Shown piece after piece: positions 12,032 through 41,610 of a DNA stretch of 42,508 nucleotides. This stretch comes from Myxococcales bacterium (GTDB lineage Bacteria; Myxococcota_A; UBA9042). The stretch spans positions 1 through 42,508 of the forward strand of contig JBBISH010000046.1 of the NCBI GenBank assembly GCA_037441385.1, given 5' to 3'. A model generated the notes under the pieces. That model saw nothing but the letters and a program-made list of their open reading frames with translations. It did not search any database and was not told the origin of the DNA. Position 1 is the stretch's first letter. Each line of letters starts with the position of its first letter. The position numbers and the translations under genes are program-made.

Positions 12032-13456
12032 TTAGTACAGACCCTGCACCGCGGCCAGGGCCGCCTCGACCAGCGGGTTGGGCCAAGCCCCCAGACCGAC
12101 CGTGCCCAGCAGACAGACAACGATCGCCAACGCGAGCGGGCGCTTGACCGGCACCGGACCTTGCAGCGTGCTCTTGTTCACGAACGCCGCCCGCGCCACG
12201 CCCAAGTAGTAGAACAGCGCCACGGTCGCGAACAGCGCGCCCAGGAGCACCATCTCGCCGTGGCCGGCGCGCCAGGCCGCGGTGAACACGTAGAATTTGG
12301 CCCAGAAACCCGCAACGAACGGGATGCCGGCCAGGCTGAGCAGGAACATCAGCAGCGCCAAAGCGAGCCATGGGGAACGCCGCGCCAGGCCGCTCAGGTG
12401 CGCGATGTCCTCGCCTTCGCCAGCCTCGGCCACCGCGTGCGCCACCAAGAACATGCCCACATTCGCGAACACATAGGCAGCCAGGTAGAACAGCATCATC
12501 GCCGCGCCAAATTCCACCCCGCCCAAAAAGCCGAGCAGGATGTAGCCGACCTGGGCGACGCCCGAGAACGCCATCAAGCGCTTCAGGTTCTTTTGCGGAA
12601 TGGCCACCAGGTTGCCGATGACCATGGTGATGACGACGAGGAGCCACAGCATCGGCCGCCAGGTGGAGGCCAAGGTCGGGGTCGCCACCAGGAAGATCGA
12701 GGCAAACGCCGCAAAACCCGCGACCTTGGGCGCTACCGACAAGAAGGCGACCACCGGGGTGGGCGCGCCCTCGTAGGTGTCAGGCACCCACATGTGGAAG
12801 GGCGCCACGCCAATCTTGAAAGCCATCCCGGCCAGCAGCAGCAGCGCCGCCACCGCGTGAAGCGGGCCGGGCTCGTAGGGCACAAGCTCGGCAAAGCGGC
12901 TGGAGCCCGCCAGACCGACCAGCAGCGCCGCGCCAAAGAAGGTCAGCGCGGTAGAGCCAGCGCCCACCAGCAGCAGCTTCAGACCAGCCTCGGCCGGCTT
13001 GCGACCATTTTCGCTCTTGCCAAAGGCGGCAAGGACATACAGCGGGATACCCATCAGCTCGAAGCACACCACGAACGAGGCCAGCTCGCGGCAGCCCGGC
13101 AGCAGCACCATGCCCGCCAGCGAGAACAGCAGCAGCGTGTAGTACTCGCCCTGGCGGTAGGGCCAGACGCGGGCGACGTAGTCCAGGCCGCCCAGCACCG
13201 CCAGCGCCGCCGCGCCGATCATCAGGCGGGCCAAGAACGTCGTCCACAGGCTGCCTTGCCAGACACCGGCCTGCACTTCGCCGTCGAGCGGCAGCGCCCA
13301 CGAGGCCGCCAGCGACCCGGCCAGGATCGCCAGCGTCAGCCAGCCCAGGGTCGGCCGGTTCGACGGTTTGAGCAGCAAGTCGACCAGCAGCACCAGCAGC
13401 GCGGCACAGGCAAGAATCAGCCCCAGCATCAGGGGTTGCAGATCAGCGAGGCTCAT
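12032..13456 (-). CDS. nuoN: NADH-quinone oxidoreductase subunit N
   Basis: FELMGIPLYVL, EAGLK, FKIGVAPFHMWVPDTYEGAP, SLAGIP..GF.AK; last position in the nuo operon. Confidence 0.93.
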   Translation of the reverse strand: MSLADLQPLMLGLILACAALLVLLVDLLLKPSNRPTLGWLTLAILAGSLAASWALPLDGEVQAGVWQGSLWTTFLARLMIGAAALAVLGGLDYVARVWPYRQGEYYTLLLFSLAGMVLLPGCRELASFVVCFELMGIPLYVLAAFGKSENGRKPAEAGLKLLLVGAGSTALTFFGAALLVGLAGSSRFAELVPYEPGPLHAVAALLLLAGMAFKIGVAPFHMWVPDTYEGAPTPVVAFLSVAPKVAGFAAFASIFLVATPTLASTWRPMLWLLVVITMVIGNLVAIPQKNLKRLMAFSGVAQVGYILLGFLGGVEFGAAMMLFYLAAYVFANVGMFLVAHAVAEAGEGEDIAHLSGLARRSPWLALALLMFLLSLAGIPFVAGFWAKFYVFTAAWRAGHGEMVLLGALFATVALFYYLGVARAAFVNKSTLQGPVPVKRPLALAIVVCLLGTVGLGAWPNPLVEAALAAVQGLY

Positions 13457-15519
13457 CGGACACCTCCAGTCGGCGCGGGGGCCGCGACGGGCGCGGGGGC
13501 CGGAGCGGGCGCCATGGCCGGGGGTGGCGGAGGCGGCGGTGGTGGCGGCATGGCCGGGCTGGGGACAGCGGCACCGGGCATTCCCAGGCTAGGCGGAGCG
13601 CCCATTCCCGGAGCACCCATACCGGGGGCAGCGCCGGGAGGAAGGCTAGGCGGCATCCCCGGTTGCGGGCCGGCGAGCGGCATTCCCGGCCGCGGCAGCG
13701 CCCCTTGCGGCGAGCCGGGGCCCATCGGAGGCATCGGCTGCCCTGGCCCCATCTGGCCCGGCATTCCACCCGGCCCCATCGGGCCCGGCATACCCGGCGC
13801 CATCCCAGGCGGCATCCCGCCCGGCATACCCGGCATCGGTCCGGGCGGCAGCGCATTGGGCGCCCCAGCACCGGGCCCGGCCATCAGCGCGCGCTGCAGA
13901 CCAGGATTGCCTTGTGGCCCGAAATTGGGCTGGTGCATCCCCTGCAGGTTCTGCGCGGTGGCCGAAGGCGGCAGCGGCATGGCGTCGGCAGTCGACACGA
14001 TGCGGCCCAGGTAGGTCTTGGTGCACGGGTCGATGAAGTCGAGAATGAGCCGCGGCCAGATGCCAAAGGTCAGGATGCAGGCGCCCAGTATGATGAGCGC
14101 GCCCAGCTCGGTGCGGCGGGCGTCGGGCAGATCGTGGAACTCGTGCGACGGGCCGGGGCCCCAGAACACGTCGCGCACGACGCGCAGCACGTAGATGGCG
14201 GTGATGAAGGCGCCGATGATGCCGGGCAGTGCCCACCAGGCGGCCTTGCTCTGCCAGGCACCAAGAAACACCATGAATTCGGCCACGAAACCGGCGGTAC
14301 CGGGCAGGCCCAGCGACGACAGGCCGCCGATGGTGAAGAACAGCGCGACCACCGGCATCGGGCCCGCAAAGCCGCCCATCGACGGCACCCAGCGGGTGTG
14401 GGCGCGCTCGTAGACCAGGCCGACCAGGGCGAAGAACAGGCCCGTCATGATGCCGTGGGCGAACATCTGGTAGACGGCGCCGTTCCAGCCGCCCTGGGTC
14501 AGCGTCGCCGCGCCCAGCATCACCACGCCCATGTGGCTGACCGAACTGTAAGCGATGATGTACTTGAGGTCCTTTTGCGCCATCGCCGACAGCGCGCCGT
14601 ACACCACGTTGATGGACGCGACCACGCCGACCAGCGGGATCCAGAACTGCGCGCCCTCGGGCAGCATCATCATGCCGATGCGGATGACACCAAAAGCGCC
14701 CAGCTTCATGAGCACGCCGGCGTGGAGCATCGACACGGCGGTGGGCGCCGAGGCGTGGCCGTCGGGCGACCAGGTGTGGAACGGGAACACGCCGGCCAAG
14801 GTGCCAAAGCCGAGCCAGACCAGCGGGAACAGCCACTTCTGCAGGTCCAGGTCGTACTTCATGTTGCCCAGGACGCTCATGTCAAAGGTCTCGCCGCCCG
14901 CGGCAAAGAACATCGCCAGGATCGCGACCAGGATGAACGCCGAGCCGACCAGCAGCATGATGGTCAGCTTCATGGCGGCGTACTCCTTGCCGCCGATGTC
15001 GAACATCTTCCAGACGAACTTGAAGGGGCCGGCCTCGGCCACCTTGTTGCTGCTACCCCAGACGGCGATCAGCACGTACATGGGCAAAACGGCGATTTCG
15101 TAAAACAAGAAGAAGATGAACAGATCCTGCGCCACGAACACGCCGAACACGCCAGCCACCAGAGTCAGCAGCAGGGCGAAGAACTCCTTTTCGCGCTCCT
15201 TCAGGGTCCAGGTGGCCAGCACGCCCGTAAAGATGATGATGCCGGTCAAGAGCAGCAGCGACACGCCCCAGCCGTCGACCGCCAGGCGCAGCGTAATGCC
15301 CAGCTTGGGAACCAACGGATAGTTCTCGGCCAACTGCAGGCCGCCCTGCGCCGCGTCGTAGAAGTGGTAGACCGCCAGCGAACCGACCAGCGAGACGGTG
15401 GCGCCCAGCAAAGACACCAAGCGCATCGCCAGCTTGTGCGTGTCCTTGAGCGGCAACAGGAGCAGCGTCGCGATAAACGGGGCCGCGACGGTCATCGACA
15501 GCCAAGGCAGCGTGATCAT
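13453..15519 (-). CDS. nuoM: NADH-quinone oxidoreductase subunit M with long Pro/Gly/Met-rich C-terminal extension
   Basis: FFLFYEI, PFHTWSPDGHASAPT, MKLGAFG, AYSSVSHMG, SLGLPGT.GFVAEF; ATG at 15519 overlaps the nuoL stop. Confidence 0.92.
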   Translation of the reverse strand: MITLPWLSMTVAAPFIATLLLLPLKDTHKLAMRLVSLLGATVSLVGSLAVYHFYDAAQGGLQLAENYPLVPKLGITLRLAVDGWGVSLLLLTGIIIFTGVLATWTLKEREKEFFALLLTLVAGVFGVFVAQDLFIFFLFYEIAVLPMYVLIAVWGSSNKVAEAGPFKFVWKMFDIGGKEYAAMKLTIMLLVGSAFILVAILAMFFAAGGETFDMSVLGNMKYDLDLQKWLFPLVWLGFGTLAGVFPFHTWSPDGHASAPTAVSMLHAGVLMKLGAFGVIRIGMMMLPEGAQFWIPLVGVVASINVVYGALSAMAQKDLKYIIAYSSVSHMGVVMLGAATLTQGGWNGAVYQMFAHGIMTGLFFALVGLVYERAHTRWVPSMGGFAGPMPVVALFFTIGGLSSLGLPGTAGFVAEFMVFLGAWQSKAAWWALPGIIGAFITAIYVLRVVRDVFWGPGPSHEFHDLPDARRTELGALIILGACILTFGIWPRLILDFIDPCTKTYLGRIVSTADAMPLPPSATAQNLQGMHQPNFGPQGNPGLQRALMAGPGAGAPNALPPGPMPGMPGGMPPGMAPGMPGPMGPGGMPGQMGPGQPMPPMGPGSPQGALPRPGMPLAGPQPGMPPSLPPGAAPGMGAPGMGAPPSLGMPGAAVPSPAMPPPPPPPPPPAMAPAPAPAPVAAPAPTGGVR

Positions 15520-17345
15520 CGCCAGCCTCCAAACAGAGCGAGAAGGGCGGCCGCGCCAAAGACCGCGTACAGGTAGTCCTGCACGTCGCCCGTCTGCAGC
15601 TTGCGCAGCTGCTGACCGGCGACGATGGTGAGCCAACCAAGGAAATTCATCAGACCGTCCACGATGTAACGGTCGATCCACGCGGCCGCCCGCGACGGCG
15701 TCTGGCCGCCGATCTCGTAGACCGACTGCCACAGCTCATCCATCAGCGAGCTGCGCGCCAGCTTGCCCAGCGGCGCGAACAGCCGCGGCAAGAAGCCCAG
15801 CGCGCCCATGCCGTAGACCAGGTAGCCCAAGGCGATGCCGCCCAGGCCCAGGCCGATGGCCGTGTACCCCACCGTCCCCATATGGAACTCGTAGGGCTTG
15901 CCAAACAGCGTCGCGAACGGCTGCGCGGCCCAGCCCAGGGCGATGGTCGGCACCAGCAGCACCACCAGCGGCAGGGTCATCGACAGGCCTGGGCCGTGCG
16001 CGTGCTCGCCGGCGTGGCTCAGCTGGCCCAAGAAGGCCTTGACCACCGTGCGAGTCATGTAGAAGGCGGTCAGGCCGGCCGTGAGGAGCAGCGCCGCCAA
16101 GGCGAAGTGGTCGCCGGACTCGTGCACGGCCTCCAAGATCAGGTCCTTGCTGTAGAAACCGGCCAGGCCCGGCACGCCCGCCAGCGACAGCGAGCCGAAC
16201 ACGAAGGCGATGGCCACGAACTTCAACTTCTTCCACAGGCCGCCCATGTCCTCGAATTCGTTGCTGTGCACCGCGTGGATGACCGCGCCGGCCGCCAGGA
16301 ACAGCAGCGCCTTGAAGAAGGCGTGGGTGGTCAGGTGGAAGTAGCCGCCCAGCAGCGAGCCGGCGCCCAGGCCCGAGATCATGTAACCCAGCTGCGAGCA
16401 GGTGGAATAGGCCAGCACCTTCTTGATGTCGGTCTGGACGGTGGCCACGATGGCGGCGAACAGCGCGGTGAAGGCGCCCAGCTGGGTCATGAATTCGCGC
16501 ACGTGCGTCGCGGCGGCAAAGATCGGATCGGCGCGGACGATCAGGTAGACGCCCGCGGCCACCATCGTCGCGGCGTGCAGCAGCGCGGACACCGGCGTGG
16601 GGCCCTGCATCGCGTCCGGCAGCCAGATGTGCAGCGGGAACTGGGCCGACTTGCCCATCACCGCCACGAACAGCAGACCGGCGACCACTTCGGCCACGCC
16701 GGTGCCCAGCGGCGCATCCCAGGCAAAAGTGCCGGTTTGGGCGGCCAGCACCAGCAGGCCCAAGATCAGGCCCGAGTCGGCGAACTTGGTGACCACGAAG
16801 GCCTTGATCGCCGCCTTGGCCGCCGCCGGCTTGGGATACCAGAAGCCGATGAGCAGGTACGAGGTGGCGCCGACGAGCTCCCAGCCGATGAACAGCTGCA
16901 TCAGGTCGGGCGCCAGCACCAGCAGGTTCATGCTGAACAGGAACAGGGACTGGTAGGTGAAGTAGCGGCCCAGGCCGTTTGGCGGCTCGTCGCTCAGGTA
17001 ACCCAGCGAGAACACCTGAACGCACCACGCCACCACCGCCACCACCAGCAGCATCGACACCGAGATGCCGTCGAGCCGGACGCCGACCTCGCCCAGGGGC
17101 CGGCCGGCCTGCACCAGCCACGCGGTCGAGTTTTGCAGGACTTCTGTGGGGTTGCCCAGCCAGGTGGCGAACAGCCAGCCGGCGATGCCCAGCACCGAGG
17201 TGGCGCCCAGGATCGACAACAGCGCGGCTGGCTTGCCGGTGCGGCGGAACATGGGCAGCACGCCGAACAAAAGCGTCAAGCCGGCGGGGATGCCAAGGGT
17301 GGCCAGCGCCGCCATAAGCAGCGGACTCTCAGTAAGTTGAGTCAT
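15516..17345 (-). CDS. nuoL: NADH-quinone oxidoreductase subunit L
   Basis: GWELVG..SYLLIGFW, GKSAQFPLHIWLPDAM.GPTPVSALLHAATMV, DIKKVLAYST.SQLGYM, HAFFKALLF. Confidence 0.95.
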   Translation of the reverse strand: MTQLTESPLLMAALATLGIPAGLTLLFGVLPMFRRTGKPAALLSILGATSVLGIAGWLFATWLGNPTEVLQNSTAWLVQAGRPLGEVGVRLDGISVSMLLVVAVVAWCVQVFSLGYLSDEPPNGLGRYFTYQSLFLFSMNLLVLAPDLMQLFIGWELVGATSYLLIGFWYPKPAAAKAAIKAFVVTKFADSGLILGLLVLAAQTGTFAWDAPLGTGVAEVVAGLLFVAVMGKSAQFPLHIWLPDAMQGPTPVSALLHAATMVAAGVYLIVRADPIFAAATHVREFMTQLGAFTALFAAIVATVQTDIKKVLAYSTCSQLGYMISGLGAGSLLGGYFHLTTHAFFKALLFLAAGAVIHAVHSNEFEDMGGLWKKLKFVAIAFVFGSLSLAGVPGLAGFYSKDLILEAVHESGDHFALAALLLTAGLTAFYMTRTVVKAFLGQLSHAGEHAHGPGLSMTLPLVVLLVPTIALGWAAQPFATLFGKPYEFHMGTVGYTAIGLGLGGIALGYLVYGMGALGFLPRLFAPLGKLARSSLMDELWQSVYEIGGQTPSRAAAWIDRYIVDGLMNFLGWLTIVAGQQLRKLQTGDVQDYLYAVFGAAALLALFGGWR

Positions 17346-17635
17346 TGACGCATCTCCCGGGCCTCGTCGACCTGCACGTCGCCCCGCGACCGATAGAGAA
17401 GAAGGACGATCGCCAGCCCGACCACCACTTCGGCCACGGCGATGGCGATGGTGAACAAGGCAAAGCTCTGGCCCACCGCGACACCTTTGTGCTGGCCCAG
17501 GCCCACGAGCACCAAGTTGGCGGCGTTGATCATGACTTCGATGGCAATCATCACGCCGATCGCGTGCTTCTGCGTCAGCAGGCCAAACACGCCGGCGCAG
17601 AACAGCGCCGAGGCGATGAGGAGGATGGCGATCAT
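17342..17635 (-). CDS. nuoK: NADH-quinone oxidoreductase subunit K
   Basis: IEVMINAANL, GQSFALF..AVAEVVVGLAI; 97 aa; ATGA overlaps on both sides. Confidence 0.93.
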   Translation of the reverse strand: MIAILLIASALFCAGVFGLLTQKHAIGVMIAIEVMINAANLVLVGLGQHKGVAVGQSFALFTIAIAVAEVVVGLAIVLLLYRSRGDVQVDEAREMRQ

Positions 17636-18231
17636 TGGCCCACCTCGTCGGTCGCGGCCAGGCCTTCGACGACCTGCCGCCCCATGTTGCGGTGACGAAT
17701 CAACTTCTTGGCCGACGGCTGGCCGGGGTCGCGCTTGCGGGCCAGCACCACCGCGCCGACCATCGCGGCCAGCAGCAGCAGCGACAACACCTCGAACGCA
17801 AAGGCATACGGCCCCAGCAGCGACAGCCCCAGCTCGGGGATGGTCACGGCCTTGCCGGCCGGCGGGTCCGTCAGGCCCGGAGTGTGCAAGATGGCGTACA
17901 CCAGGCCGACGAACAGCGCGATCGCCACCAACGCCGCCCGCACCGGCCGCCGCGTGGTGCGGAAGGCCGCCAGGTTGTCGTGTTCGCGGGTGAGCATCAC
18001 GCCAAAGATCAGCAGCATCACCACGCCGCCCACGTACAGCAGCACCTGGATGGCGGCCAGGAACGAGGCGTCGAACTTGGCGAACAGCGCCGCGGTCCCG
18101 AGCAGCGACATCCCCAACCACAGGACGGCGTGCACCAGGTTCTTGACCGAGACGGCCAGCATGGCAAAGGCCAGCGTGGCGATCCCCAGCAGCCAGAGCG
18201 CCGGGTCTTGCATCAGCATCGCGAGGTTCAT
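17632..18231 (-). CDS. nuoJ: NADH-quinone oxidoreductase subunit J
   Basis: NLVHAVLWL, QVLLYVGGV.ML..F.VML, FEV.SLLLL.AMVGAVVLA. Confidence 0.93.
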   Translation of the reverse strand: MNLAMLMQDPALWLLGIATLAFAMLAVSVKNLVHAVLWLGMSLLGTAALFAKFDASFLAAIQVLLYVGGVVMLLIFGVMLTREHDNLAAFRTTRRPVRAALVAIALFVGLVYAILHTPGLTDPPAGKAVTIPELGLSLLGPYAFAFEVLSLLLLAAMVGAVVLARKRDPGQPSAKKLIRHRNMGRQVVEGLAATDEVGQ

Positions 18232-18761
18232 GGCGCCTCCGTTTTGGCAGGCTCGGCGGCGGGAGCGGGTGCCGGCGCGGGCTTGGGCGGCTCCTGCATC
18301 TCCATCAGCTTGGTGCCATTACCCCAAGTCAGCGGCTTTTCGCCATTTTCGTAGAGCTTGGCCATGGTCAGGACCAAGTCTTCGCGCGCGTAACCAGGCT
18401 CGTGCGGCACCTTGAGCATGACGATCGCGTCGAACGGGCAGACCTGCACGCACAGCTCGCAGAAGATGCACGCCGTCATGTCCAGTGTGAAGTCGTCCAG
18501 ATAGCCGCGCTTCTTGCCGGTAACCGGCGATTCCTTCTTGGTGCTGGCCATGTGGATGATCTGCGACGGGCAGATGCGCTCGCACGCCAGGCACCCCACG
18601 CAGCGCTCTTCACCCTGCTCGTCCTTCAACAGGGCAAAGCTGGTGCGGTAGCGCTCTTGGCGTTCGCGAATGACTTTGGGGAATTGCACCGTCACCGGCT
18701 TGCGGCCGATGTTCTTGGCGGTGACTCCCAGCGCCCGAATGCTGTCGAGCAGGTATCCCAT
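18228..18761 (-). CDS. nuoI: NADH-quinone oxidoreductase subunit I
   Basis: Two 4Fe-4S motifs, CVGCLACERICP and CIFCELCVQVCP; VTVQFP. Confidence 0.93.
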   Translation of the reverse strand: MGYLLDSIRALGVTAKNIGRKPVTVQFPKVIRERQERYRTSFALLKDEQGEERCVGCLACERICPSQIIHMASTKKESPVTGKKRGYLDDFTLDMTACIFCELCVQVCPFDAIVMLKVPHEPGYAREDLVLTMAKLYENGEKPLTWGNGTKLMEMQEPPKPAPAPAPAAEPAKTEAP

Positions 18762-18786
18762 CGGTGACTCCTACGGCTCGAGCCGG

Positions 18787-19779
18787 CTAGCGCAGCACGA
18801 AATGGCGCCAAAGCGCAGCAAAAATCACAAGTCCCAGCGACACCGGCACCAGATAGAGCCAGCACAGCCGCATCAGCTGATCCGAGCGGAAGCGCAGCAG
18901 CGACCAGCGCACCCAGTACACGCTGGCGAACAGGGCCACAGTCTTGATGACCATCCAGTGCAAGCCCGAGGCGACGTGGAACGGGCCGTCCCAGCCGCCC
19001 AGGAAAATGACCGCGGCGATGGCCGAGCCGACCATGGTGTGCACGTACTCGCCCACGTACAACAGGCCGAATTTCATGCCGGTGTACTCGGTGGTGATGC
19101 CGGCCACCAGCTCGGACTCCGCCTCGGGGATGTCGAACGGGATGCGGTTCGACTCGGCCAGCAAGGCCATGTAGAACAAGACGAACGCGACGACGCCGGG
19201 GCCCGGTGGCCACAGCGCCAGCCAGCCGTGCTCGATCTGGAATTTCACGATGCCCGACAGGCTCATGGTGCCGGTGAACACCACCGCGACCAGGGACGTG
19301 AGCACCAGCGGCACGCCGTAGCTCACCGACTGCGCGACCGCGCGCATGCCGCCGATCAGCGCGAATTTGTTGTTGGAAGCCCAGCCCGCCATCCACACCG
19401 GGATGACCATGAGACCGCCCAGCGCCAGCACCCACAGGATACCCACGTCCAGGTCGGCGCCCACGGCCTCGGCGGTAAACGGCACCACCGCGGCGGTCGC
19501 AATCGCGAAGGTGGTCACCAAGAATGGCGCCAGGTCGAACAGCAGGCGATCGGCGCCGATCGGGTAGATCTCCTCTTTTTGCAGCAGCTTCATCAAGTCG
19601 GCCACCGGCTGCAGCAGACCGAATTTGCCCACCACGTTCGGGCCGATTCGCGACTGCATCCGCGCCGCCAGCTTGCGCTCGAGCCACATGCCCCACGCCG
19701 TGGCGGTCATCAAGACGGTGATGATCAACCCACCGTAGACCAAGCCGCGCAGCAGTCCTTGCATGATCACTCCTTGCAC
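18787..19779 (-). CDS. nuoH: NADH-quinone oxidoreductase subunit H
   Basis: ERKL.ARMQ.RIGPN, GLLQP.AD..KL, NRIPFDIPEAESELVAG..TEY.G; start 19779 or 19764. Confidence 0.95.
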   Translation of the reverse strand: MQGVIMQGLLRGLVYGGLIITVLMTATAWGMWLERKLAARMQSRIGPNVVGKFGLLQPVADLMKLLQKEEIYPIGADRLLFDLAPFLVTTFAIATAAVVPFTAEAVGADLDVGILWVLALGGLMVIPVWMAGWASNNKFALIGGMRAVAQSVSYGVPLVLTSLVAVVFTGTMSLSGIVKFQIEHGWLALWPPGPGVVAFVLFYMALLAESNRIPFDIPEAESELVAGITTEYTGMKFGLLYVGEYVHTMVGSAIAAVIFLGGWDGPFHVASGLHWMVIKTVALFASVYWVRWSLLRFRSDQLMRLCWLYLVPVSLGLVIFAALWRHFVLR

Positions 19780-19797
19780 CCAAAGTACCGGATTCGT

Positions 19798-20991
19798 CTA
19801 GCGATCGACTTCGCCCATGATCGGGTCGAGCGAGCCCAGGATGACCACGACGTCGCTGACCGTGTGGCCCGGCAGGATCCACGGCAGCGCCGACAGCGCG
19901 TGCAGGCTGGGGGCGCGGATCTTGCAACGGTACGGCGCCGTACCCTTGTCGCCACCGCCCGCCACCACAAAGGTACCCAGCTCGCCGCGCGGCGTGTCGA
20001 TACCCACGTAGGCCTGACCGGACATGGTCTTGAATTGCTGGGGCATCTTGATCGGCTTGCCACCGTTGATGCCGCCCTCGGGCAGGCCGGCCAACCCCGC
20101 ACGCACCAGACGAATCGACTCGCGCAGCTCGGCGACCCGCACTTGGGCCCGCGCCTGGCAATCGCCGGCGGTGGCCGTGGCGACGTTGACTTTGAGCTCG
20201 TCGTAGGCGTGGTACGGCGCGTCGCGGCGCAGATCGAAGTCGACGCCCGAGGCCCGCAAGATCGGCCCGGTCAGGCCCAGCCCGAGCGCCAGCTCCTTGT
20301 CGATGACGCCGACGCCCTTGGTGCGGGCGACGAAGATGGCGTTGTTGCTGCTCATCGCCTCGTACTCGGGCAGGCGCGACTCGATGAGGTCCAGCACCTT
20401 GATCACTTCGCGGTCCCAACCGGGCGGGATGTCGTGGCGGTTGCCGCCGATGGTGTGGGTGTTGTAGTGGAAGCGACCGCCGGTGACCATCTCGAACAAA
20501 TCCAAGATGTAATCGCGCTCGCGGAAGGTGTAGATGAACACGCCCGAGCCGCCACCCAGCGCGCCGCCCATGTCGAGCGCGAAGGTACCGAGCCAAAGCA
20601 TGTGCGAGGCGATACGCTGCAACTCGGCAAAAATCGTGCGCATCCACCGGGCGCGCCGCGGCACTTCGACCTTGAGCAGCTTCTCGAACGCCATCACCAG
20701 CGCCTGCTCGTTGGTCATCGGCGCGACGTAGTCGTTCTTGTCGACGATCGGCACGCCCTGAGCAAAGGTGAGTTTTTCCAGAAGCTTTTCGACGCCGCGG
20801 TGCAGGTAGCCTGCGTACGGGATCGCCCGCACCACCACCTCGCCGTCGAGGATGAGCTTGATGCGGAACACCCCGTGCGTGCTGGGGTGCTGCGGGCCAA
20901 AGTTGAGCACCATGAGGTCCGCGTCGGCGTCCATCTGCTCGAGGCGGTAGCGGTCGGAAGTCGGGCCGGGATGGCGGGCGTTCATCAGCAT
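19798..20991 (-). CDS. nuoD: NADH-quinone oxidoreductase subunit D
   Basis: NFGPQHPSTHGV, GYLHRG.EK, PRGELG, C-terminal LGSLDPIMGEVDR; no Ni-binding CxxC pairs. Confidence 0.95.
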   Translation of the reverse strand: MLMNARHPGPTSDRYRLEQMDADADLMVLNFGPQHPSTHGVFRIKLILDGEVVVRAIPYAGYLHRGVEKLLEKLTFAQGVPIVDKNDYVAPMTNEQALVMAFEKLLKVEVPRRARWMRTIFAELQRIASHMLWLGTFALDMGGALGGGSGVFIYTFRERDYILDLFEMVTGGRFHYNTHTIGGNRHDIPPGWDREVIKVLDLIESRLPEYEAMSSNNAIFVARTKGVGVIDKELALGLGLTGPILRASGVDFDLRRDAPYHAYDELKVNVATATAGDCQARAQVRVAELRESIRLVRAGLAGLPEGGINGGKPIKMPQQFKTMSGQAYVGIDTPRGELGTFVVAGGGDKGTAPYRCKIRAPSLHALSALPWILPGHTVSDVVVILGSLDPIMGEVDR

Positions 20992-21078: not shown

Positions 21079-22365
21079 CTAGCGCCAGGGACGGCAGGCC
21101 GTGTCGGCGGCATAGTCGCGGCGCAGGGGGTGGCCCTGCCAATTTTCGGGCAGCATGATGCGGCGCAGATCCGGGTGGTTGGCGAACTGGACACCGAGCA
21201 GGTCGAACTGCTCGCGCTCTTGCCAGTCGGCGGCGGCGAACACGCTGGCCAGGGACTCCAACGTCTCGCCGGGCTGCAGCACCACGCGCCACTGGGCCAG
21301 CTTTGCGCCGGCAGTGGGGCTGCGCAGGCCAAAGGCCACCTCGAAGGTGTCGCCGTCGGCCTTGGGCCAGTGCGACGCCACCACGTAGATGAGCAGCGAA
21401 TAGCCCATCGCCTTCAAGGTGTTCGCCAGCTCCAGGTGACGGTCGCGCGGCACGATCGGCGCGTTGTCGGCCGGGAAGTCTTCGATCCCAAAGCGCTCGC
21501 GCAGCAGCGCCTCGACATCCAAGGCCGCCTGCACCGGCACGGGCTCGGCGCCGCGCCAGTCCAGCTCGCCTTCGGGCGCGTCGGGCGACTGCAGGCCAGC
21601 TTGGCGCGCTTGTTCGGCGCTGATCGCCGGATCGCGCTCGGGGTCGTCCACGCGGCGAACGGCCGGGCCGTGCATTTTCTCGGTCTCGGGGCGGAGTTCG
21701 GGGGCGTGCCACGTTCCAGCCTGCTTGGCGGCGATCTTCTCTTGCAGCCGCAGCATGCCGTGCATCAGCGCCTGCGGGTCGGGCGGGCAGCCGGGCACGT
21801 ACACGTCGACAGGCAAGATGGTGTCGATGCCGGGCACGGTGGGGTACAGGTCGCGGTAGAAGTCGCCCGAGATGGCACACGAACCCATGGCGATCGCCCA
21901 CTTGGGCTCGGGCATCTGGTCCCACAACCGCTTGACCTTGGGGGCCATTTTGACGGTGATGGTGCCGGCGATGACCATGACGTCGGCCTGGCGCGGGGTG
22001 GCGCGCACGATGGAGCCGATGCGGTCGATGTCGACGCGGGCGGCGGCCGTGGCCATGAACTCGATGCCGCAGCACGAGGTGGCCATGGGGAAGATGTACA
22101 AGGCGTTCTTGGCGCCCCAAGTCAGCAGCTGATCGATGGACGCGACCGCGACCGACAGGCCCGGGACGTTGATGAGGGTGGTATAGAGCGGATGGTCGTA
22201 GGCCTGACCCGACTCGTCGACTACTCGCGCCCCACCTGATTCACGCCTGGTCTGCGCCCCGGACCCGTTTGGCAACTGGCGAGAATCATGCGGGGACCCC
22301 GGTTCGGACCCGGAGAGTTGCGCTGATTCTTGATCGGATTTGAACGGATCCGGCGTTACTGCCAT
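21079..22365 (-). CDS. nuoB: Fused NADH-quinone oxidoreductase subunits B and C, with an N-terminal repeat-derived insert
   Basis: TSCCGIE, PRQAD, MPEPKW.I.MGSCA and PVDVYVPGCPP (NuoB), followed in frame by WQERE.FDL.G..F..HPDLRRI..P....HPLRRDY (NuoC); ATG at 22365 overlaps the nuoA end. Confidence 0.9.
   Translation of the reverse strand: MAVTPDPFKSDQESAQLSGSEPGSPHDSRQLPNGSGAQTRRESGGARVVDESGQAYDHPLYTTLINVPGLSVAVASIDQLLTWGAKNALYIFPMATSCCGIEFMATAAARVDIDRIGSIVRATPRQADVMVIAGTITVKMAPKVKRLWDQMPEPKWAIAMGSCAISGDFYRDLYPTVPGIDTILPVDVYVPGCPPDPQALMHGMLRLQEKIAAKQAGTWHAPELRPETEKMHGPAVRRVDDPERDPAISAEQARQAGLQSPDAPEGELDWRGAEPVPVQAALDVEALLRERFGIEDFPADNAPIVPRDRHLELANTLKAMGYSLLIYVVASHWPKADGDTFEVAFGLRSPTAGAKLAQWRVVLQPGETLESLASVFAAADWQEREQFDLLGVQFANHPDLRRIMLPENWQGHPLRRDYAADTACRPWR
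22221..22358 (+). repeat. Interspersed ~138-bp repeat (MITE/RPE-like), copy 1, diverged, within the nuoB 5' end
   Basis: Colinear and equal in length to 30243-30380 (CCCCACCTGATTC...GCAACTGGCGAGAATCA.GCGGGGACCCCG.TTCGG). Confidence 0.9.
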
Positions 22366-22751
22366 CGCAGGGCCTCCTTCTTCAGCGCATACAGCCAACC
22401 GAGCATCAAAACCGCCATGAAAATGCCCATCAGCACCAGCGCGGCCACGCCGAGCTTGCTCAGCACCAGCGCCCACGGGAACAGGAACGCCGCTTCCACG
22501 TCGAACAGGACGAAGAACAGCGCTACGACGTAGTAGCGCGGGTGGAACTGGATGCGGGTCTCGCCGACCGGCTCTTCGCCGCACTCGTAGGGACGGTTGC
22601 GCAAGCTGCCGGGATTTTTGGACTTTACTGCGAAGAGCTTGGCCACGCCCATCATCGTGGCGGCGATGACCATCGAGAACAGCACGAAGCCGACGGCGGC
22701 CAGCCAGGTCTGGACCTGGGAACCACCTGTAGCCGCTAGCGTTTCACCCAT
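22356..22751 (-). CDS. nuoA: NADH-quinone oxidoreductase subunit A
   Basis: PYECGE.P, YYVVALFFVLFDVEAAFLFPWA, G..YA.KK.AL.W. Confidence 0.95.
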   Translation of the reverse strand: MGETLAATGGSQVQTWLAAVGFVLFSMVIAATMMGVAKLFAVKSKNPGSLRNRPYECGEEPVGETRIQFHPRYYVVALFFVLFDVEAAFLFPWALVLSKLGVAALVLMGIFMAVLMLGWLYALKKEALRWQ

Positions 22752-22935
22752 GAGGCCCTCCCGGCCGCAACGCAGGCCGATGGCGGCGCGGAGTTTAGAC
22801 GCGGTGCGGCACCGCCACAAGCCGAACAGGGCCCTGGTTCGTCACGTCTGCGCCATAGGCGCGGTTTTTCGCGTGTTCTTGCGCGGTCTTGGCCGCCAGT
22901 TTGCCGTGGCGAGGCGGGCCAGCTAGCATCGAGGC

Positions 22936-25125
22936 GTGAGCCAGCCCCCGCCAACTCTGCCGCAGCGACCGATCGAATCGGCTAGCCCGCGCCGGTTGGC
23001 GTTGGAGCCGCTGCCGCCGGGTCGGTTGGCGGGGCTGCGACAGGCGCTGAGCAGCGCCGGTCTGGAGCTGACGAGCGGGCAGTGGCGACCGGGCGAAGTG
23101 CGGCTGGAGCTGGCGGTGGCCGGGCGCGCGGTGGTGGCGACGCTGGGCGAGAAAGACATGGAGCGGCCTGCATTTGTGCGGAGCGACCGCTTCGACTTGG
23201 GCTACCTGGAGGGCAACGGCACCGCAGAGCAGAGCGCGCTGGCCCAGCGAACGGTGCAACGCCTGGGTCAACTGGTCGACGGCGCCGATCTGACCCGCCA
23301 CCTGCTGGGGGCGCTTCAGGGCCGCGACAGCGACGAAGGCCAGTCCGAGCTTGGGGATTTTGCAGTGGTCGCCGGGCCAGACCTGCGGACCTTTGCCGTG
23401 CAGCGCTGCAGCAAGCGCCCGGACGTGGGCCCGCGCCAAGACGGCCCGGCGCACGCGTGGGTGCAAGAAGGCGAGCAGTATCGCATCTATCGGAGCAGTC
23501 GCTGCCCGGACGACGCAGCGGTGGCGGCACGGGTGCGCGGCAGTGGCGCGGGTCCGCAAGGCCGGCTGCTGACGCTCCAAAGTCCCTGTCGCGATTGCGT
23601 GCTGCGCAGCGAGTGTGCGGGGTGCTGGGAGCTGGCGGCGCCGCTGGAGGATCTCGCCACGCAGCTGGCCAAGGCCCGCCAGACCTTGGGTCACGCCGGC
23701 CCGGTCGAGGTGTTGGGCGACGAGGTGCTTTCGCTGGCCAGCCCCGCGGGCAAGGGCGCGCCGTTGCTGCTGGTTTCGGGTGCCGATCTGGCGCGCCGGC
23801 CGACCCGACTGCAGCTAGCCCGACGCCTGCGCACGGCCCCGCGGCCGGCGGGCGTGCTGGTCTTGGGCCGCGAGCCCGGCCTGGTGGTGGCGGACGCCCC
23901 AATTCCCCTGCAGCCGGCGAGCGCGGCGCGGGTCGCACGCAGCCTTCTGGGCTCGGCGCTGCAAGTTCGCCAGGCGGACTGGCCGCACCGCGGCGTCGAC
24001 CTGCATCAGCGCCAAGGGCAATGGTGGCTGTGGACCGAGGTCGCCCAGCCCGGCGATCCGCCGCCGGTGCGCTTGGAGCATGTCACCCTGGCGCTGAACC
24101 GACGCTGCGTGACGGTGTGTCGCTACTGTGATCTGCCGCTGCGCCTGCGCGAAGACATGCCGATCGCCCGGGTGTTTCGCGTGTTGGAAGAGGTGGTGGC
24201 GCTGGGCGGGGTGTCGCTGGAGCTGTTTGGCGGCGAGGTGACCCTGCGGCCCGATCTGATCGCGCTGCTCGCTCACGCCAAGGGCTTGGGCCTGCAGACG
24301 TTCGTCACCACCACGGGGCTGGGCCTGAGCGACAAACAGCTGCTGGATCTGGCGCGAGCAGGCATCACCGACCTGTCGATCTCGATCGACTCGGCCGACC
24401 CCGCGGTGCACGACGATCTGAAGGGGCGCCCGGGCATGTTCGACGCGGCCGTGCGCGCCGCCACCGAACTCAAACGTCTGGGCGCGCCGCACGTGGGCCT
24501 GAACACGGTGATTACTCCAGCAAATTTTGAGTTATTGCCGGGCGTGGTGCGCCTGTCGGCGCAGCTGGGTCTGGCGGGCGTGACGATGTTCTTGTGCCAG
24601 CCGGTGGCCGAGTTTGGCAACGCGACCCCGCTGCTGAACGAGCAGCAAAGCCGGAAGCTGATCCGCGAAATTCTGCCCGAAGCCCGGCGCCTTGGCCGCG
24701 AATTGGGCGTGCACGTGGGGGTCCGCCCGGCCATCGACAAAGAAGGCGACGACGGGGCCGGCCACGCCTGCGGCGACGCGACCGCAGCGCGCATCGCCCG
24801 CGGCGAATACAGCCGCATTTTCGATGGTTCGGCGCCGTGCCGCATCCCCGACCACTTGGTGTCGGTCCGCGGCGACGGCAGCGTGCGCCTGTGCAACCAG
24901 CCCGTCATGCAGTTCGACGACAGCTGCTCGGTGGGCAACGTCGCCGACGCCAGCCTAGTGCAAATTTTGCACAGCCCGCGCGCCGCCGAGTTCCGCCAGC
25001 AGGCCGGCACCCTGCCCTTGTGCAAATATTGCACCTTTGACCACTCGGTGGCGGGTGCGAACCCAGGATTGGCCACCCAGGCCGCGGGCGAAGGGGCGGC
25101 CGATCGCCGCAGGGCCCAGCCGTGA
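22936..25125 (+). CDS. Radical SAM/SPASM-Twitch protein with long N-terminal extension
   Basis: NRRCVTVCRYCD (CxxxCxxC), FGGE, SISIDS...HD..KG.PG.F, C-terminal C..x..GDGSVRLC..GNV..CKYC; extra N-terminal CRDCVLRSECAGC; GTG start with GAGG RBS. Confidence 0.85.
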   Translation: MSQPPPTLPQRPIESASPRRLALEPLPPGRLAGLRQALSSAGLELTSGQWRPGEVRLELAVAGRAVVATLGEKDMERPAFVRSDRFDLGYLEGNGTAEQSALAQRTVQRLGQLVDGADLTRHLLGALQGRDSDEGQSELGDFAVVAGPDLRTFAVQRCSKRPDVGPRQDGPAHAWVQEGEQYRIYRSSRCPDDAAVAARVRGSGAGPQGRLLTLQSPCRDCVLRSECAGCWELAAPLEDLATQLAKARQTLGHAGPVEVLGDEVLSLASPAGKGAPLLLVSGADLARRPTRLQLARRLRTAPRPAGVLVLGREPGLVVADAPIPLQPASAARVARSLLGSALQVRQADWPHRGVDLHQRQGQWWLWTEVAQPGDPPPVRLEHVTLALNRRCVTVCRYCDLPLRLREDMPIARVFRVLEEVVALGGVSLELFGGEVTLRPDLIALLAHAKGLGLQTFVTTTGLGLSDKQLLDLARAGITDLSISIDSADPAVHDDLKGRPGMFDAAVRAATELKRLGAPHVGLNTVITPANFELLPGVVRLSAQLGLAGVTMFLCQPVAEFGNATPLLNEQQSRKLIREILPEARRLGRELGVHVGVRPAIDKEGDDGAGHACGDATAARIARGEYSRIFDGSAPCRIPDHLVSVRGDGSVRLCNQPVMQFDDSCSVGNVADASLVQILHSPRAAEFRQQAGTLPLCKYCTFDHSVAGANPGLATQAAGEGAADRRRAQP

Positions 25126-26924
25126 CGGGTCCCGCGGCGGCCCAGCTGCTGGGACTTGCGCAGGTGGAGCCGCTGCATTTTGCGTCGTTCTACCAGCGCA
25201 CACGGCTGTATCGCGGCGGCCTGAGGCCGGCCGTGGCCGAGGTGGTGCTGGACCTGACCCAGGACTGCCCGCTGGACTGTGCCTTTTGTCTGGCTGGAGC
25301 CGTGCGGGGCGGCGGTCGGCGCATCGAGTTGCCCCAGCTGCGCGTCTTGGAACGGCAACTACTCGGCATTCCGCGCATCTTGGTGGTCGGCGGCGAGCCG
25401 CTGGCGCACCCGGAGCTCCGCGCGGCCTTGGCGATCTTGCGCAACACGGCGGCCGAGGTCGAGATCATCACGGGCGGTGCGACCTTGCCGCTGGATGCCG
25501 CCAAGTTTGGCCATTGGGCCGACACCCACCTGCGCGGCGGACCGGGGCGGCTGGTGCTGACGCTGTCGGTGGATGCGTGGCACAGGCAGGCGGTGGGCGA
25601 GGCAGCCTTTGCTCGGCGTATCGAGCACGTGCTGGCCTTGGAGGAAAAGGCACACGACCGGTTGCAAGTCCGCTTCTTGGCGACAGATCCCCGCCTGACA
25701 ACCGCTGGTTACGTGCGCCGCGAGGCGGTGGCCGAAGTGTTGGCCGACCTGCATCCGGGGCTGGCGGAGCGCTGGCAGCGCCGCTTTGGCGAGCAACGCG
25801 CCGACGACGTGTTCCGCCTGGGACCGGTGGTGCGGCTGGGGTCGGCGCAACAGAGCGCCGCCGAGCCCCTGGACGCAGGCGAGCTGGCCTTTGCCGGCGA
25901 AGTGGTGCTGACTCCGCGCGGCGAACACGGGGAGTTGCTGGGGTTGCGCGCCCTGCCGGCGACGTGGATGGACCGCGTGCCCGCCGGGTTGCAGCGCGGG
26001 GCGCTGGACCTGGACCACCTGGACCGTGCCATCGAGACGAGCGCGGTGGCCGAAGCGCTTGGCTTTGCCATTGTGCCGCAGCTACAGCAGCGCTGGCAGC
26101 ACTGGCTGCAGGGCGAACAATCGCCTGAGCTTGCGGTTGATTTACGTACGGCGGCGGCGCTGCACCTTGCCGAGCAGTGGCCCAGGGTGCGCGAAGCGTG
26201 GCTGGACCAACAGGCGGCCCGTCTCGCCGCGACCTGCTCGGCCGAATTGCCGTGGACGTTTGCGGTGAACCGCCCTTGGCGCCGCGTGCACCTGCCGCTG
26301 CTGCGGCGCCTGTGGTCGCTCAAGTCCGTGCAAAACCTCGGGTTTGGCGAGCAATTGGTCGGCGAGCTGGTCCAGGCGAGCTTGCGGGCGTTGACCGAGC
26401 CAGGCTGGCCGGCCTTTGTGGGCTATGCCGCGCAGTCGGGGCTGCTGTGCGAACGGCCCGACGCGCCGATCCCTTTGCAAGACGTGCCCTTGGACACGGG
26501 CCTGGCGACGCCCTACCTGGGCGATGCCTGGCACCGACCGCGGCTGGTACTGCGCGCGGGCTTTGAGCCGCCTGACGGCCGGCCGGTGCTGGCGTGGGAC
26601 GGGCTGGGCGCCGTGCCCTGGCAAGAGGGCGACGGCGAGCGGGCCACGGCCGAGTTTGCGACCCTGGCGGCGCGGATGCAGCAAGTGGTGCCCAACGTAC
26701 TAGGCGAAATGCTTTGGCAGCAGTGGGTTGTGGCGCTGCGGCAGCAGGCGCAGCACTGGCGGCACGCGGGCCTGCACGATTTGGCCGACGCCGCGGAGGC
26801 TTCGCTGCGTGCGCCGGCGCTGCCCGCAGCCGAAGCGATCGAGGACCGCGACGCCGTGCTCCACTTGGTGGCCGGGCCGCGCGTGGACGGCTGGCCGGTT
26901 GCCGCAGCCGGGCAAAAGTGCTGA
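25122..26924 (+). CDS. Radical SAM protein with unknown C-terminal domain
   Basis: LTQDCPLDCAFC (CxxxCxxC), GGEPL.HP, LSVD..H; GTGA overlap with the upstream gene. Confidence 0.8.
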   Translation: MTGPAAAQLLGLAQVEPLHFASFYQRTRLYRGGLRPAVAEVVLDLTQDCPLDCAFCLAGAVRGGGRRIELPQLRVLERQLLGIPRILVVGGEPLAHPELRAALAILRNTAAEVEIITGGATLPLDAAKFGHWADTHLRGGPGRLVLTLSVDAWHRQAVGEAAFARRIEHVLALEEKAHDRLQVRFLATDPRLTTAGYVRREAVAEVLADLHPGLAERWQRRFGEQRADDVFRLGPVVRLGSAQQSAAEPLDAGELAFAGEVVLTPRGEHGELLGLRALPATWMDRVPAGLQRGALDLDHLDRAIETSAVAEALGFAIVPQLQQRWQHWLQGEQSPELAVDLRTAAALHLAEQWPRVREAWLDQQAARLAATCSAELPWTFAVNRPWRRVHLPLLRRLWSLKSVQNLGFGEQLVGELVQASLRALTEPGWPAFVGYAAQSGLLCERPDAPIPLQDVPLDTGLATPYLGDAWHRPRLVLRAGFEPPDGRPVLAWDGLGAVPWQEGDGERATAEFATLAARMQQVVPNVLGEMLWQQWVVALRQQAQHWRHAGLHDLADAAEASLRAPALPAAEAIEDRDAVLHLVAGPRVDGWPVAAAGQKC

Positions 26925-26964: not shown

Positions 26965-27705
26965 ATGCCAAACCGTCAACTTTTTGGCTACTTGCTAGCA
27001 TACCTTGCCGTGGGCGCCGCGCTTGGCTGCGAGGCGAACCCAGCCCCGGCCAGCGCGGTAGACGCGGCGAGCGACGCGACTGGCGATGCGGACAGCAGCG
27101 GCGGCGACAGCAGCAGCGCGGACGGGTCTCTTGGTGGCGATGGGACGGCGGGCGGCGACGTGGTGCCCAGCTGCGGCGACGGGGTGTGCTCGCCGGGCGA
27201 GACTGCGGCAAGCTGCGCCAAAGACTGCAAAATCCAACCGATCTGCGGCGACGGGGCCTGCACCAAAGGCGAGACCGCGACCAACTGCGCCAAGGACTGC
27301 ACGGTAGCCGGCAGCTGCGGCAACGGCGTCTGCAACCCCGGCGAGTCGGTCAGCTGCCCCAAGGATTGCCCCACCGTGACGACCTGCGGCGACGGTGCCT
27401 GCAACTACCCAGAAAACGACCAGATCTGCCCCGGCGACTGCAAGGGCCAAGATCCCTGCGGCAACGGCAATTGCGTCAGCGCGCTAGAGAGCTGGTACAC
27501 CTGCCCCAGTGACTGCCCCAACAAGCCCGCGTGCGGCGACGGCAATTGCGCCCCCGGCGAGGACAAGGGCTGCATGGAAGACTGCGGGCCAGTCAACGGC
27601 AGCTGCAAGAACATGTGCGGCGGCTCGGCCGGGGGCTGCTACTGCGACGAAATCTGCAGCCAGTATGGCGATTGCTGCCCCGACAAGGACAAGTGGTGCC
27701 CATAG
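26965..27705 (+). CDS. Cys-rich lipoprotein with CG(D/N)GxC repeats and C-terminal somatomedin B-like domain
   Basis: GGAGG RBS at 26951; lipobox ALGC; six CG(D/N)G.C...E....C..DC repeats; SCKNMC..GCYCDEICSQYGDCCPD. Confidence 0.8.
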   Translation: MPNRQLFGYLLAYLAVGAALGCEANPAPASAVDAASDATGDADSSGGDSSSADGSLGGDGTAGGDVVPSCGDGVCSPGETAASCAKDCKIQPICGDGACTKGETATNCAKDCTVAGSCGNGVCNPGESVSCPKDCPTVTTCGDGACNYPENDQICPGDCKGQDPCGNGNCVSALESWYTCPSDCPNKPACGDGNCAPGEDKGCMEDCGPVNGSCKNMCGGSAGGCYCDEICSQYGDCCPDKDKWCP

Positions 27706-30242: not shown

Positions 30243-30380
30243 TGATACGAACCCCACCTGATTCGCGCCTGTACGACTTTCCGGGCTCGCTCTGCAACTG
30301 GCGAGAATCAGGCGGGGACCCCGATTCGGGCCGGAGGAAATGCCCGAGTCTTCGATCCGATTCAAACGAATTCGGTATGA
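30243..30380 (+). repeat. Interspersed ~138-bp repeat, copy 2 (apparently intact, TGA at both ends)
   Basis: TGA-TACGAA...TTCGGTA-TGA; internal hairpins CCCCACCTGATTC/GAATCAGGCGGGG and GATTCGGGC/GCCCGAGTC. Confidence 0.92.
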
Positions 30381-40533: not shown

Positions 40534-41477
40534 TCTGCCGCCGTTGGTTGGCCTGCAGCGCGCTGCTGGGGCTTCTCGTTGCTGATTTGGCCAGTGCCGA
40601 TCCGATGCTGCCCCGCGAGACCGCGGACGTGCGCGGCAACGACAGCGGCTCGGTCGGCCTGTTCAACCCGCTGCGCATCGGCTTTGCCCAGGCCGAGATC
40701 GAGCTGCACCCACTCGCGGCCTTGGTGGCCCCGCACGCCGACCTGCGCCTGCCCCTGCTGCGCGCCCAGCAGCCAGGAGGTTGGCGCACCGCGGCAATCC
40801 TGGGTCTGGCGCTGCCCAGCCCGGCGTGGCGACTGGAAAAACCGCTTGGATTTTCAGGAGACTTGCTACCCAGCTGCAAAGTCGCCGATGTGGATCCCTC
40901 GCTGGCCAGTTGGTGCGATCGGCCCGGCTGGATGCTGTCGCCCAAGTTCGGCGTGCAGATCTCCAAGGGGCTCGCCATGGACGGCGCGGTCGAGCGGGGC
41001 GTACTGACGGTGTCCGGCGAAGTCGCCACCGGCTGGCTGCTCTCTGGCAAAGCGGCGCGGCCGCTGGACGCCTGGGCGCCAGTCGCCGTACAATTCGCGC
41101 CATATATCGGCCGGTTCCGTGCCCAGGTTCGCGCGGGGTACGACCACGCGTTGGGCGACTACCTGCGGCTGCGCATCGAGGCCGCGGGCTACTACGTGGA
41201 ACGGCCGGCAGACGACCCTCTATCGCCCTGGTACGCGAGTGTCCACCTGGGCGCCGATGTCCGCACGAGCGAGCACACGCGCGTGGCGGTGGGAGCCATC
41301 TACTGGAACTACGACAAGCACGAGCGCACCGTCCAGGTCGACGCCGACGGGTTTGCCAACGTCAGCTACGGTCGCTCGCACGAAGTGTGGCCAGCGGTGG
41401 ATTTTTTGTGGATGTGGGGAGCCCCGGCGCCGTTGGGCCTGCCCCGCTCGGACGTGCCGCCGGCCGAGACTCACTGA
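40530..41477 (+). CDS. Secreted, probably beta-barrel, hypothetical protein
   Basis: ATGA coupling with the EEP gene; signal peptide; alternating amphipathic beta-strand pattern ending VWPAVDFLWMW. Confidence 0.65.
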   Translation: MICRRWLACSALLGLLVADLASADPMLPRETADVRGNDSGSVGLFNPLRIGFAQAEIELHPLAALVAPHADLRLPLLRAQQPGGWRTAAILGLALPSPAWRLEKPLGFSGDLLPSCKVADVDPSLASWCDRPGWMLSPKFGVQISKGLAMDGAVERGVLTVSGEVATGWLLSGKAARPLDAWAPVAVQFAPYIGRFRAQVRAGYDHALGDYLRLRIEAAGYYVERPADDPLSPWYASVHLGADVRTSEHTRVAVGAIYWNYDKHERTVQVDADGFANVSYGRSHEVWPAVDFLWMWGAPAPLGLPRSDVPPAETH

Positions 41478-41610
41478 TCCAAACTCCACCTGATTCACGC
41501 TGGTACGGTTTCTTCGACCCGGCCTGCAACCGGCGAGAATCAGGCAGGGACCCGGTTCAAGCCCGAAGATTGCCGGATCTGTCGAGCCGACTCAGACGGA
41601 ATCCGTGCGC
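41475..41610 (+). repeat. Interspersed ~138-bp repeat, copy 3 (diverged, two 1-bp deletions)
   Basis: TGATCCAAACTCCACCTGATTCACGC...TGCAACCGGCGAGAATCAGGCAGGGACCC; starts on the TGA stop of the upstream gene. Confidence 0.9.

Follow-up and report, generated by a model that had tools for sequence, protein, structure and literature searches.

A miniature transposable element at the nuoA stop codon and the probable N-terminal extension of NuoBC in a Myxococcales bacterium

The nuoA/nuoBC junction and its insertion

The window analysed here is a stretch of 42,508 nucleotides from a Myxococcales bacterium (GenBank assembly GCA_037441385.1, contig JBBISH010000046.1, positions 1 to 42,508), whose genome, termed G000 below, is a draft metagenome-assembled genome (MAG) of 6.6 Mb in 221 contigs with a G+C content of 67%. 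The minus strand of the window carries, between 12032 and 22751, a nuo operon of 11 genes, for which Pfam gave the order nuoA, nuoBC, nuoD, nuoH, nuoI, nuoJ, nuoL, nuoM and nuoN. The first gene, nuoA (22356-22751), encodes 131 amino acids (Oxidored_q4, E = 1.3e-32), and nuoBC (21079-22365) encodes a 428-residue fusion of NuoB (Oxidored_q6, E = 7.7e-26) and NuoC (Complex1_30kDa), while the rest of the operon, from nuoD to nuoN, occupies 12032-20991. Pfam searches of the window's proteins detected no nuoE, nuoF or nuoG in the operon, which thus falls short of the canonical 14-subunit nuoA-N set. Residues 4-48 of NuoBC are encoded by a copy of a dispersed repeat, and we consider it quite probable (roughly 0.85) that a MITE (miniature inverted-repeat transposable element) struck the TAA stop codon of nuoA and added 45 in-frame codons to the N-terminus of nuoBC, and that these codons are translated and harmless.

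The 3' end of nuoA reads TGG CAG TAA, the stop codon being 22358-22356, and nuoBC starts with an ATG at 22365-22363; the overlap of the two genes reads ATGGCAGTAA, in which the nuoA stop overlaps codons 3-4 of nuoBC. The Shine-Dalgarno (SD) motif AAGGAGG (22373-22379, minus strand) lies 7 nt 5' of this ATG, within the 3' end of nuoA; it is untouched by the insertion, and the related genome G007 has the motif as well. Read in the direction of the genes, the stop TAA (22356-22358) is followed by a 132-nt repeat core (22224-22355), a TAG (22221-22223) and then TCGACGAG. The core lies on the plus strand in the orientation of another copy at 30243-30380, and its minus strand supplies most of nuoBC codons 4-48, which are open and encode 45 residues. 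TAA and TAG correspond to the two target-site duplicates, of which the former is still the nuoA stop and the latter is one substitution away from TAA. As the core and one 3-bp duplicate add up to 135 bp, or 45 codons, the frame of nuoBC was kept.

The corresponding empty site was found in two genomes from the genus of G000. The N-terminus in G007, whose protein is 95% identical, reads MAVIDESGQAYDHPLY, and that in G005 (89%) is the same; the DNA of both genomes is ATGGCAGTAATCGACGAG, encoding MAVIDE with a single TAA. In G000, MAV is followed by the 45 extra residues and then by VDESGQAYDHPLY. A later change of one base in the second TAA duplicate, which gave the TAG, accounts for the Val found in place of the Ile of the orthologues. 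Run X3, a groundwater metagenome from another study, yielded a 235-nt contig (depth 4.1) that joins 22220 to 22356, skipping 135 nt. A public protein search gave 183 NuoB relatives at E ≤ 1e-5, of which 120 were listed. Of the first 110 residues, 71% is the most that any of these 120 covers; a 383-residue form without the insert, present on 24 contigs, is the best match among them, and the 428-residue form is absent from the matches listed.

A first-pass annotation of this DNA had described 22221-22358 as a repeat copy of the same 138-bp length as 30243-30380, with its right boundary at the nuoA TAA, and as 45 stop-free codons following M-A-V of NuoB. We recovered the TAA at that boundary and, in the open codons, the very residues quoted. 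The proposal that deletion of 135 bp restores the junction is borne out by the sites in G007 and G005, and the comparison of nuoA-nuoB junctions suggested there showed that the N-terminal insert is not shared by G007, G005 or the organism of the X3 contig. That NuoB receives 45 extra codons therefore stands, with two refinements, namely that NuoB is fused to NuoC in a product of 428 amino acids and that the inserted unit is a 132-nt core plus a 3-bp duplicate.

A mobile repeat family with a TNA target

A repeat search of the window grouped 22221-22314, 30243-30336, 41475-41568 and 42380-42473 into one family. With 30243-30380 as the query, blastn matched 22230-22353 (76% identity over 125 nt, E = 3.3e-17), and an nhmmer profile built from 253 genomic copies (cut-off E ≤ 1e-3) matched 22224-22356 at profile positions 4-136 of 138 (E = 2.5e-29). 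The alignment of the nuoBC copy to its siblings, which the earlier annotation had named as a point on which its proposal could fail, is thus highly significant. At 138 nt, the nuoBC copy is of canonical length, and 108 of its 137 aligned bases agree with the family consensus. Many copies are dispersed over G000: the 30243 copy gave 356 blastn matches (270 of at least 110 nt), and the profile gave 443 matches, 260 of them full length.

The length of exactly 138 nt, flanking triplets included, was found in 204 of the 252 full-length copies with flanks. Column counts showed a conserved block bounded by T-N-A on either side, and the triplet was identical on both sides in 115 of the 128 copies that have TNA at both extrapolated ends, the duplicated triplets being TGA (51), TCA (42), TTA (12) and TAA (10). 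The element is therefore a mobile, non-autonomous 132-nt core that duplicates a 3-bp TNA target. It has several properties of a MITE, being short, devoid of a transposase gene, present in many copies, associated with a target duplication, and matched by empty sites at nuoA/nuoBC and in two further genes, for a Ser/Thr kinase and a DsbA-like protein, which are described below. DNA searches detected the family in two of 41 genomes, G000 and G007, the latter being one of ten genomes of the same genus, and the copies in G007 are 76-82% identical. A 23-nt word of the core gave at least 9 matches in the sequence collection, in one public groundwater MAG. No Rfam family reached its gathering score anywhere in the window. 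The nuoBC copy is about equally far from the best copy in G000 (83%) and the best copy in G007 (80%), and it could be assigned to no subfamily.

The other copies in the window are all on the plus strand. The one at 30243-30380 lies between two minus-strand genes, with TGA at both ends and the TAG stop of the upstream gene 2 nt away; the left TGA of the copy at 41475-41610 is the stop of a 386-codon plus-strand open reading frame (ORF); and the copy at 42380-42508 is cut by the window end. Among 238 full-length copies across the genome, 43 have a duplicated TNA that serves as the stop, TGA or TAA, of a flanking ORF with a coding signature; a few rows flagged as TAG represent diverged or mis-extrapolated ends. 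By a rough estimate, this proportion would result if insertion into TNA were random and gene-breaking copies were then lost. At 30243, the sibling copy folds better than its shuffles do (z = -3.0). A significant hairpin was sought in the nuoBC copy too, which folds no better than its shuffles (z = -0.35 on the plus and -1.5 on the minus strand). About 50 partial profile matches cover only repeat positions 74-137 (e.g., G000:C14:56525-56588 and C41:37943-38006); they could represent either a sub-family of shorter elements or solo right halves with one end in common.

The TNA duplication may point to the parentage of the element. The IS1031 group of the IS5 family prefers 5'-TNA-3' and produces exclusively 3-bp direct repeats, according to an excerpt of PMC12016507, and the duplication seen in 115 of 128 copies is like that of this group. 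By this analogy, the duplication appears to be the signature of DDE transposases of the IS1031 group/IS5 family. In the consensus, TAC follows the duplication at both ends of the element, and a comparison by eye gave only ~10 matches, in inverted orientation, among the first 19 bases; these ends are unlike the sole IS1031-group inverted repeat quoted in the same excerpt. Two matches to the transposase domain PF01609 (contigs C209 and C4), with unmatched ends, and none to PF13359 were found in G000, which is weak evidence in a draft that is 91% complete. We rejected C209 and C4 as sources of the parent transposase, as their surroundings share only chance words of 7-9 nt with the element ends, one of them within the transposase ORF. 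Pairs of partial matches to the left and right ends, 0.4-1 kb apart (C50 and C78), turned out not to be insertion sequences, the one in C78 enclosing a redoxin-like ORF. Insertion sequences often fail to assemble.

The above data bear on two explanations that do without an insertion at this site. We regard it as very improbable that assembly misplaced a repeat copy between nuoA and nuoBC. The genome is a draft, and contigs assembled from run X1, the probable source, break within the repeat. Nevertheless, two independent contigs of this run, which overlap at 22278-22298, cover 21900-22298 and 22278-22800 with 0 differences, so both junctions of the filled allele are real. Moreover, the copy carries its own substitution pattern over the whole length, its flanks are the correct neighbours, and its length matches one element and one duplicated triplet exactly. 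No joint of the empty allele was seen in X1, which says little since contigs drop rare variants. Least probable of all, with next to no credence on our side, is an ancestral state with the 45 codons, from which the relatives lost them by deletion. The segment belongs to a family of 443 matches with target duplications, G005, where the site is empty, gave no match to this family, and the same exact excision of 135 bp would be needed in G007, G005 and the organism of the X3 contig.

Probable translation and tolerance of the repeat-derived codons

The proposed insertion would have been survivable because of three features of the element and its target. As the non-autonomous 132-nt MITE duplicates its 3-bp TNA target, here the nuoA TAA, nuoA keeps a stop; the added 135 bp, a multiple of three, leave the nuoBC frame intact; and the element is stop-free in the orientation and phase of nuoBC. 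Ribosomes starting at the conserved ATG preceded by the SD motif would read 45 residues and then the normal NuoB sequence. The extra piece would form the very N-terminus, in front of the conserved fold, and is most likely tolerated.

We infer that the repeat-derived codons must be translated from the following observations. Across genera, the start is conserved as M/V-A-V and overlaps the nuoA stop. No in-frame ATG, GTG or TTG occurs for 40 codons after the insert, and hence none before a segment of 24 residues whose differences from G007 are almost all synonymous. The earlier remark that no other in-frame ATG precedes the conserved NuoB region thus holds, the only alternative start being a TTG within the insert itself (22275-22273; codon 31). 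The 31 codons after the insert differ from those of G007 by nine synonymous changes and one non-synonymous change, as counted by eye. This segment appears to be under constraint at the protein level, so ribosomes would have to reach it from upstream. Over the whole gene, NuoBC of G000 and G007 differ at 16 amino acids in 380 codons, as against 47 changes at 207 four-fold sites, and nuoBC is, to judge by these counts, under purifying selection. The open frame of the insert was also considered as a sign of selection, and rejected as such, since a simulation with 29 substitutions gave P = 0.33-0.40.

The product retains the hallmarks of NuoB/Nqo6/PSST proteins, namely the Oxidored_q6 domain and four conserved Cys: the ligands of the terminal Fe-S cluster, C98, C99, C163 and C193, are invariant in 25 sequences, and its best PDB matches, found by phmmer, are NuoB chains (E = 1e-51 to 1e-44). 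Unlike the usual members of this family, it is fused to NuoC, belongs to an operon without nuoEFG and bears a repeat-derived extension of 45 residues. The PDB alignment starts at NuoBC residue 73, which corresponds to residue 21 of Thermus Nqo6 (2fug_6), 36 of E. coli NuoB (7awt_B) and 10 of 7q5y_F, so that insert residues 4-48 precede everything conserved. These residues are hydrophilic and rich in Pro, Ser, Gly, Glu and Arg. In an AlphaFold2 model (25-row alignment; mean predicted local distance difference test score, pLDDT, of 71), residues 1-47 lack secondary structure and score below 50, the folded part starting at about residue 59. G013 (L034) and G020 (L042), which belong to other genera, carry unrelated extensions of ~50 residues right after M-A-V, that of G013 matching only itself in its own genome. 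This N-terminal site of NuoB thus appears to tolerate length variation.

The insertion seems to be old. The nuoBC copy is 0.789 identical to the consensus, as compared with a median of 0.90 (48th lowest of 257), and shows no net length change; the earlier claim that it has diverged from its siblings is therefore well founded. Its 21% of changed positions may be compared with the four-fold divergence of 22.7% between G000 and G007, a value summed over both lineages. Since the split, the insert has therefore accumulated changes to about the same extent as neutral sites, or more, which fits an old, unconstrained insertion and not a finely tuned module. Most likely, the insert is a tolerated, floppy and probably disordered tail and not a new functional module. 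Of the first-pass view that a non-autonomous element has been exapted as protein sequence, the part stating that it now forms N-terminal sequence agrees with our results; as to the implied new function, the evidence fits a tolerated tail.

Several points weigh against the view that the 45 codons are translated and harmless. The genome is only a metagenome-assembled draft of 221 contigs, and by the simulation above the open frame is not improbable by chance. Part of the low pLDDT of the insert is to be expected, as no aligned homologue row covers it. Another point is that translation could begin at the TTG, in which case only 18 residues would be repeat-derived and the upstream ATG would be disused. 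This is the sole other in-frame start, and ribosomes arriving from the ATG might conceivably be hindered by the hairpin of the repeat. We nevertheless judge it improbable, because the ATG retains a perfect AAGGAGG at 7 nt and the overlap with the nuoA stop, no SD-like motif precedes the TTG, ribosomes from the ATG meet no stop, and the SD-AUG region has much the same predicted accessibility with (0.51) and without the insert (0.42-0.44).

A somewhat lower probability still goes to the idea that the insertion crippled NuoBC and that the gene is becoming a pseudogene, buffered by a second complex I-type NuoB. Such a paralogue (46% identity) does exist in G000 on contig C221 (2.6 kb), and it could buffer some loss of performance. 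With G005 as the outgroup, lineage-specific changes are somewhat more numerous in G000 than in G007 (9 versus 4), and the insert itself evolves approximately neutrally. On the other side, all nine changes in G000 are conservative, and the only one in the NuoB half is the Ile-to-Val change at the junction. The 428 codons contain no stops or frameshifts, the cluster Cys residues are intact, and the whole operon of 11 genes is open. Thus, we favour a translated and harmless extension that starts at the ATG.

Other in-frame copies and related systems

The repeat family is overwhelmingly intergenic, with five verified in-gene copies among the 334 copies of at least 100 nt. Screens based on open frames, codon-position G+C, Pfam and orthologues detected four more copies in G000 whose orientation and reading frame match those of the nuoBC copy, with relatives lacking the insert. 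The copy at C17:40525-40657 splits the HATPase_c domain of a 1351-residue hybrid histidine kinase, in which Pfam detected only profile positions 36-109, after the insert; a 51%-identical homologue in G007 has 12 residues in place of 56. The copy at C145:6270-6405, with TGA on both sides, lies within the HATPase_c domain of a CheA-type kinase, stretched to residues 365-549, and the homologues in G001 and G005 have 11-12 residues versus 54. In a Ser/Thr kinase, the copy (C10:47751-47879) follows the kinase domain; the 89%-identical G007 orthologue is without the 46 residues, and the C-terminal region beyond them is conserved in frame. The same kinase (L078, C10:46518-48251) has, around residues 515-545, tandem peptide units like APESI/APVSI, which are missing in the G007 orthologue. 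Finally, a DsbA-like protein of 262 amino acids (gene C67:9035-9820) carries the insert (C67:9665-9800) seven codons before its stop, and the 86%-identical G007 orthologue (217 amino acids) is without exactly 45 residues.

G007 has a candidate of its own (L073, C506; 3935-4096), which is in the same frame within a 1599-codon open frame whose third-position G+C is coding-type on either side of the copy (0.90 and 0.88). A single reading frame is thus used in six of six in-frame copies, five in G000 and the unverified one in G007. In four of the six possible frames, 86-94% of the 208 canonical copies have no stop. A strict ORF screen gave one internal copy. Out of 123 spanning open frames, 16 were picked by eye from their codon-position G+C and 15 of these were scanned with Pfam, among which only the CheA-type and Ser/Thr kinases held up. 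The ApbE, DUF3347, DUF3570 and Fic ORFs were rejected as in-gene copies, as their domains lie only downstream of the element, which probably sits in their 5' regions. In a further 39 candidate cases, an open frame extends from a copy into a downstream gene. Two candidates for C-terminal read-through are C1:39683 (an HTH protein) and C123:7811, both in a different frame and with relatives only 45-65% identical. The copy at C13:57140-57275 lies in an apparently decayed gene, and its open frame continues into a Fic-domain ORF; in what seems to be a restriction-enzyme R-subunit gene, we take the copy to stand after helicase motif I (GTGKT) and before (K)RILFLVDR, the motif that comes next.

In-frame fusion of MITEs is already known as a kind of event, and what is new here is the sequence family, in an unusual host and target gene. 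Such fusions are 'not unusual' according to an excerpt of a 2024 review, in which Rickettsia palindromic elements (RPEs; Ogata et al. 2000, 2002, as cited there) are the extreme case, nearly half of them lying inside genes (PMC10969869; see also PMC5896051). As far as these excerpts describe RPEs, the G000 repeat resembles them in being a short (~100-150 bp) structured repeat that is found in frame in unrelated protein genes, gives a conserved peptide and occupies positions seemingly compatible with the fold. The likeness described is one of behaviour. Unlike RPEs, the repeat resides in a free-living-type, myxobacterium-like genome of 6.6 Mb and 67% G+C, shows a clear 3-bp TNA (DDE-type) target duplication, and is rarely found in genes. 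The RPE precedent invoked by the first-pass annotation is thus apt for in-frame insertion with a conserved peptide, seen in five G000 genes in one frame, and fails for the large in-gene share. The repeat is also like the intragenic ERIC, BOX, Coxiella QMITE1 and Anabaena MITEs, which the excerpts present as non-autonomous, high in copy number, mostly intergenic and occasionally protein-coding (PMC10969869, PMC5896051). It differs from those MITEs in a unit length that is a multiple of three (132 + 3), the single frame of six copies and the respiratory-complex target.

The nuoBC locus offers a clean, datable case in which a transposon appears to have lengthened the protein of a core bioenergetic subunit; both the filled and the empty site are available, and the target duplication is exact. 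The locus illustrates how such an insertion can be survived, namely by a stop-codon target preserved through duplication, an element length divisible by three and one reading frame that is stop-free and hydrophilic, and the copies in kinase loops and a protein tail share this frame. Gene callers may misplace the starts of such genes. It is attractive, though doubtful, to speculate that the repeat is a 'coding-competent' MITE, a frame-neutral 45-codon unit whose disorder-prone linker was fixed repeatedly in one frame in kinases, a thiol-isomerase-like protein and a complex I subunit, possibly with selection of the element itself for harmlessness when translated. The NuoB tail could then have a role, e.g., in the assembly or regulation of the nuoEFG-less complex. 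If this were true, Myxococcota that are free-living would have an RPE-like route to new protein segments.

Some minor features were noticed in passing. The nuoM-like product of the operon is long, with 759 amino acids. Tandem 72-bp units with a Cys-rich motif occur at 27165-27561 of the window (direct-repeat families D4, D5 and D16), adjoined by two radical SAM/SPASM genes (22936-26924). Another dispersed repeat, which measures ~200 nt and is unrelated to the 132-nt family, is found at C111:16831-17037, C75:20017-20223, C93:4878-5492 and ~20 more places; it corresponds to residues 94-162 of the called protein P0004, with 85-94% amino acid identity on many contigs.

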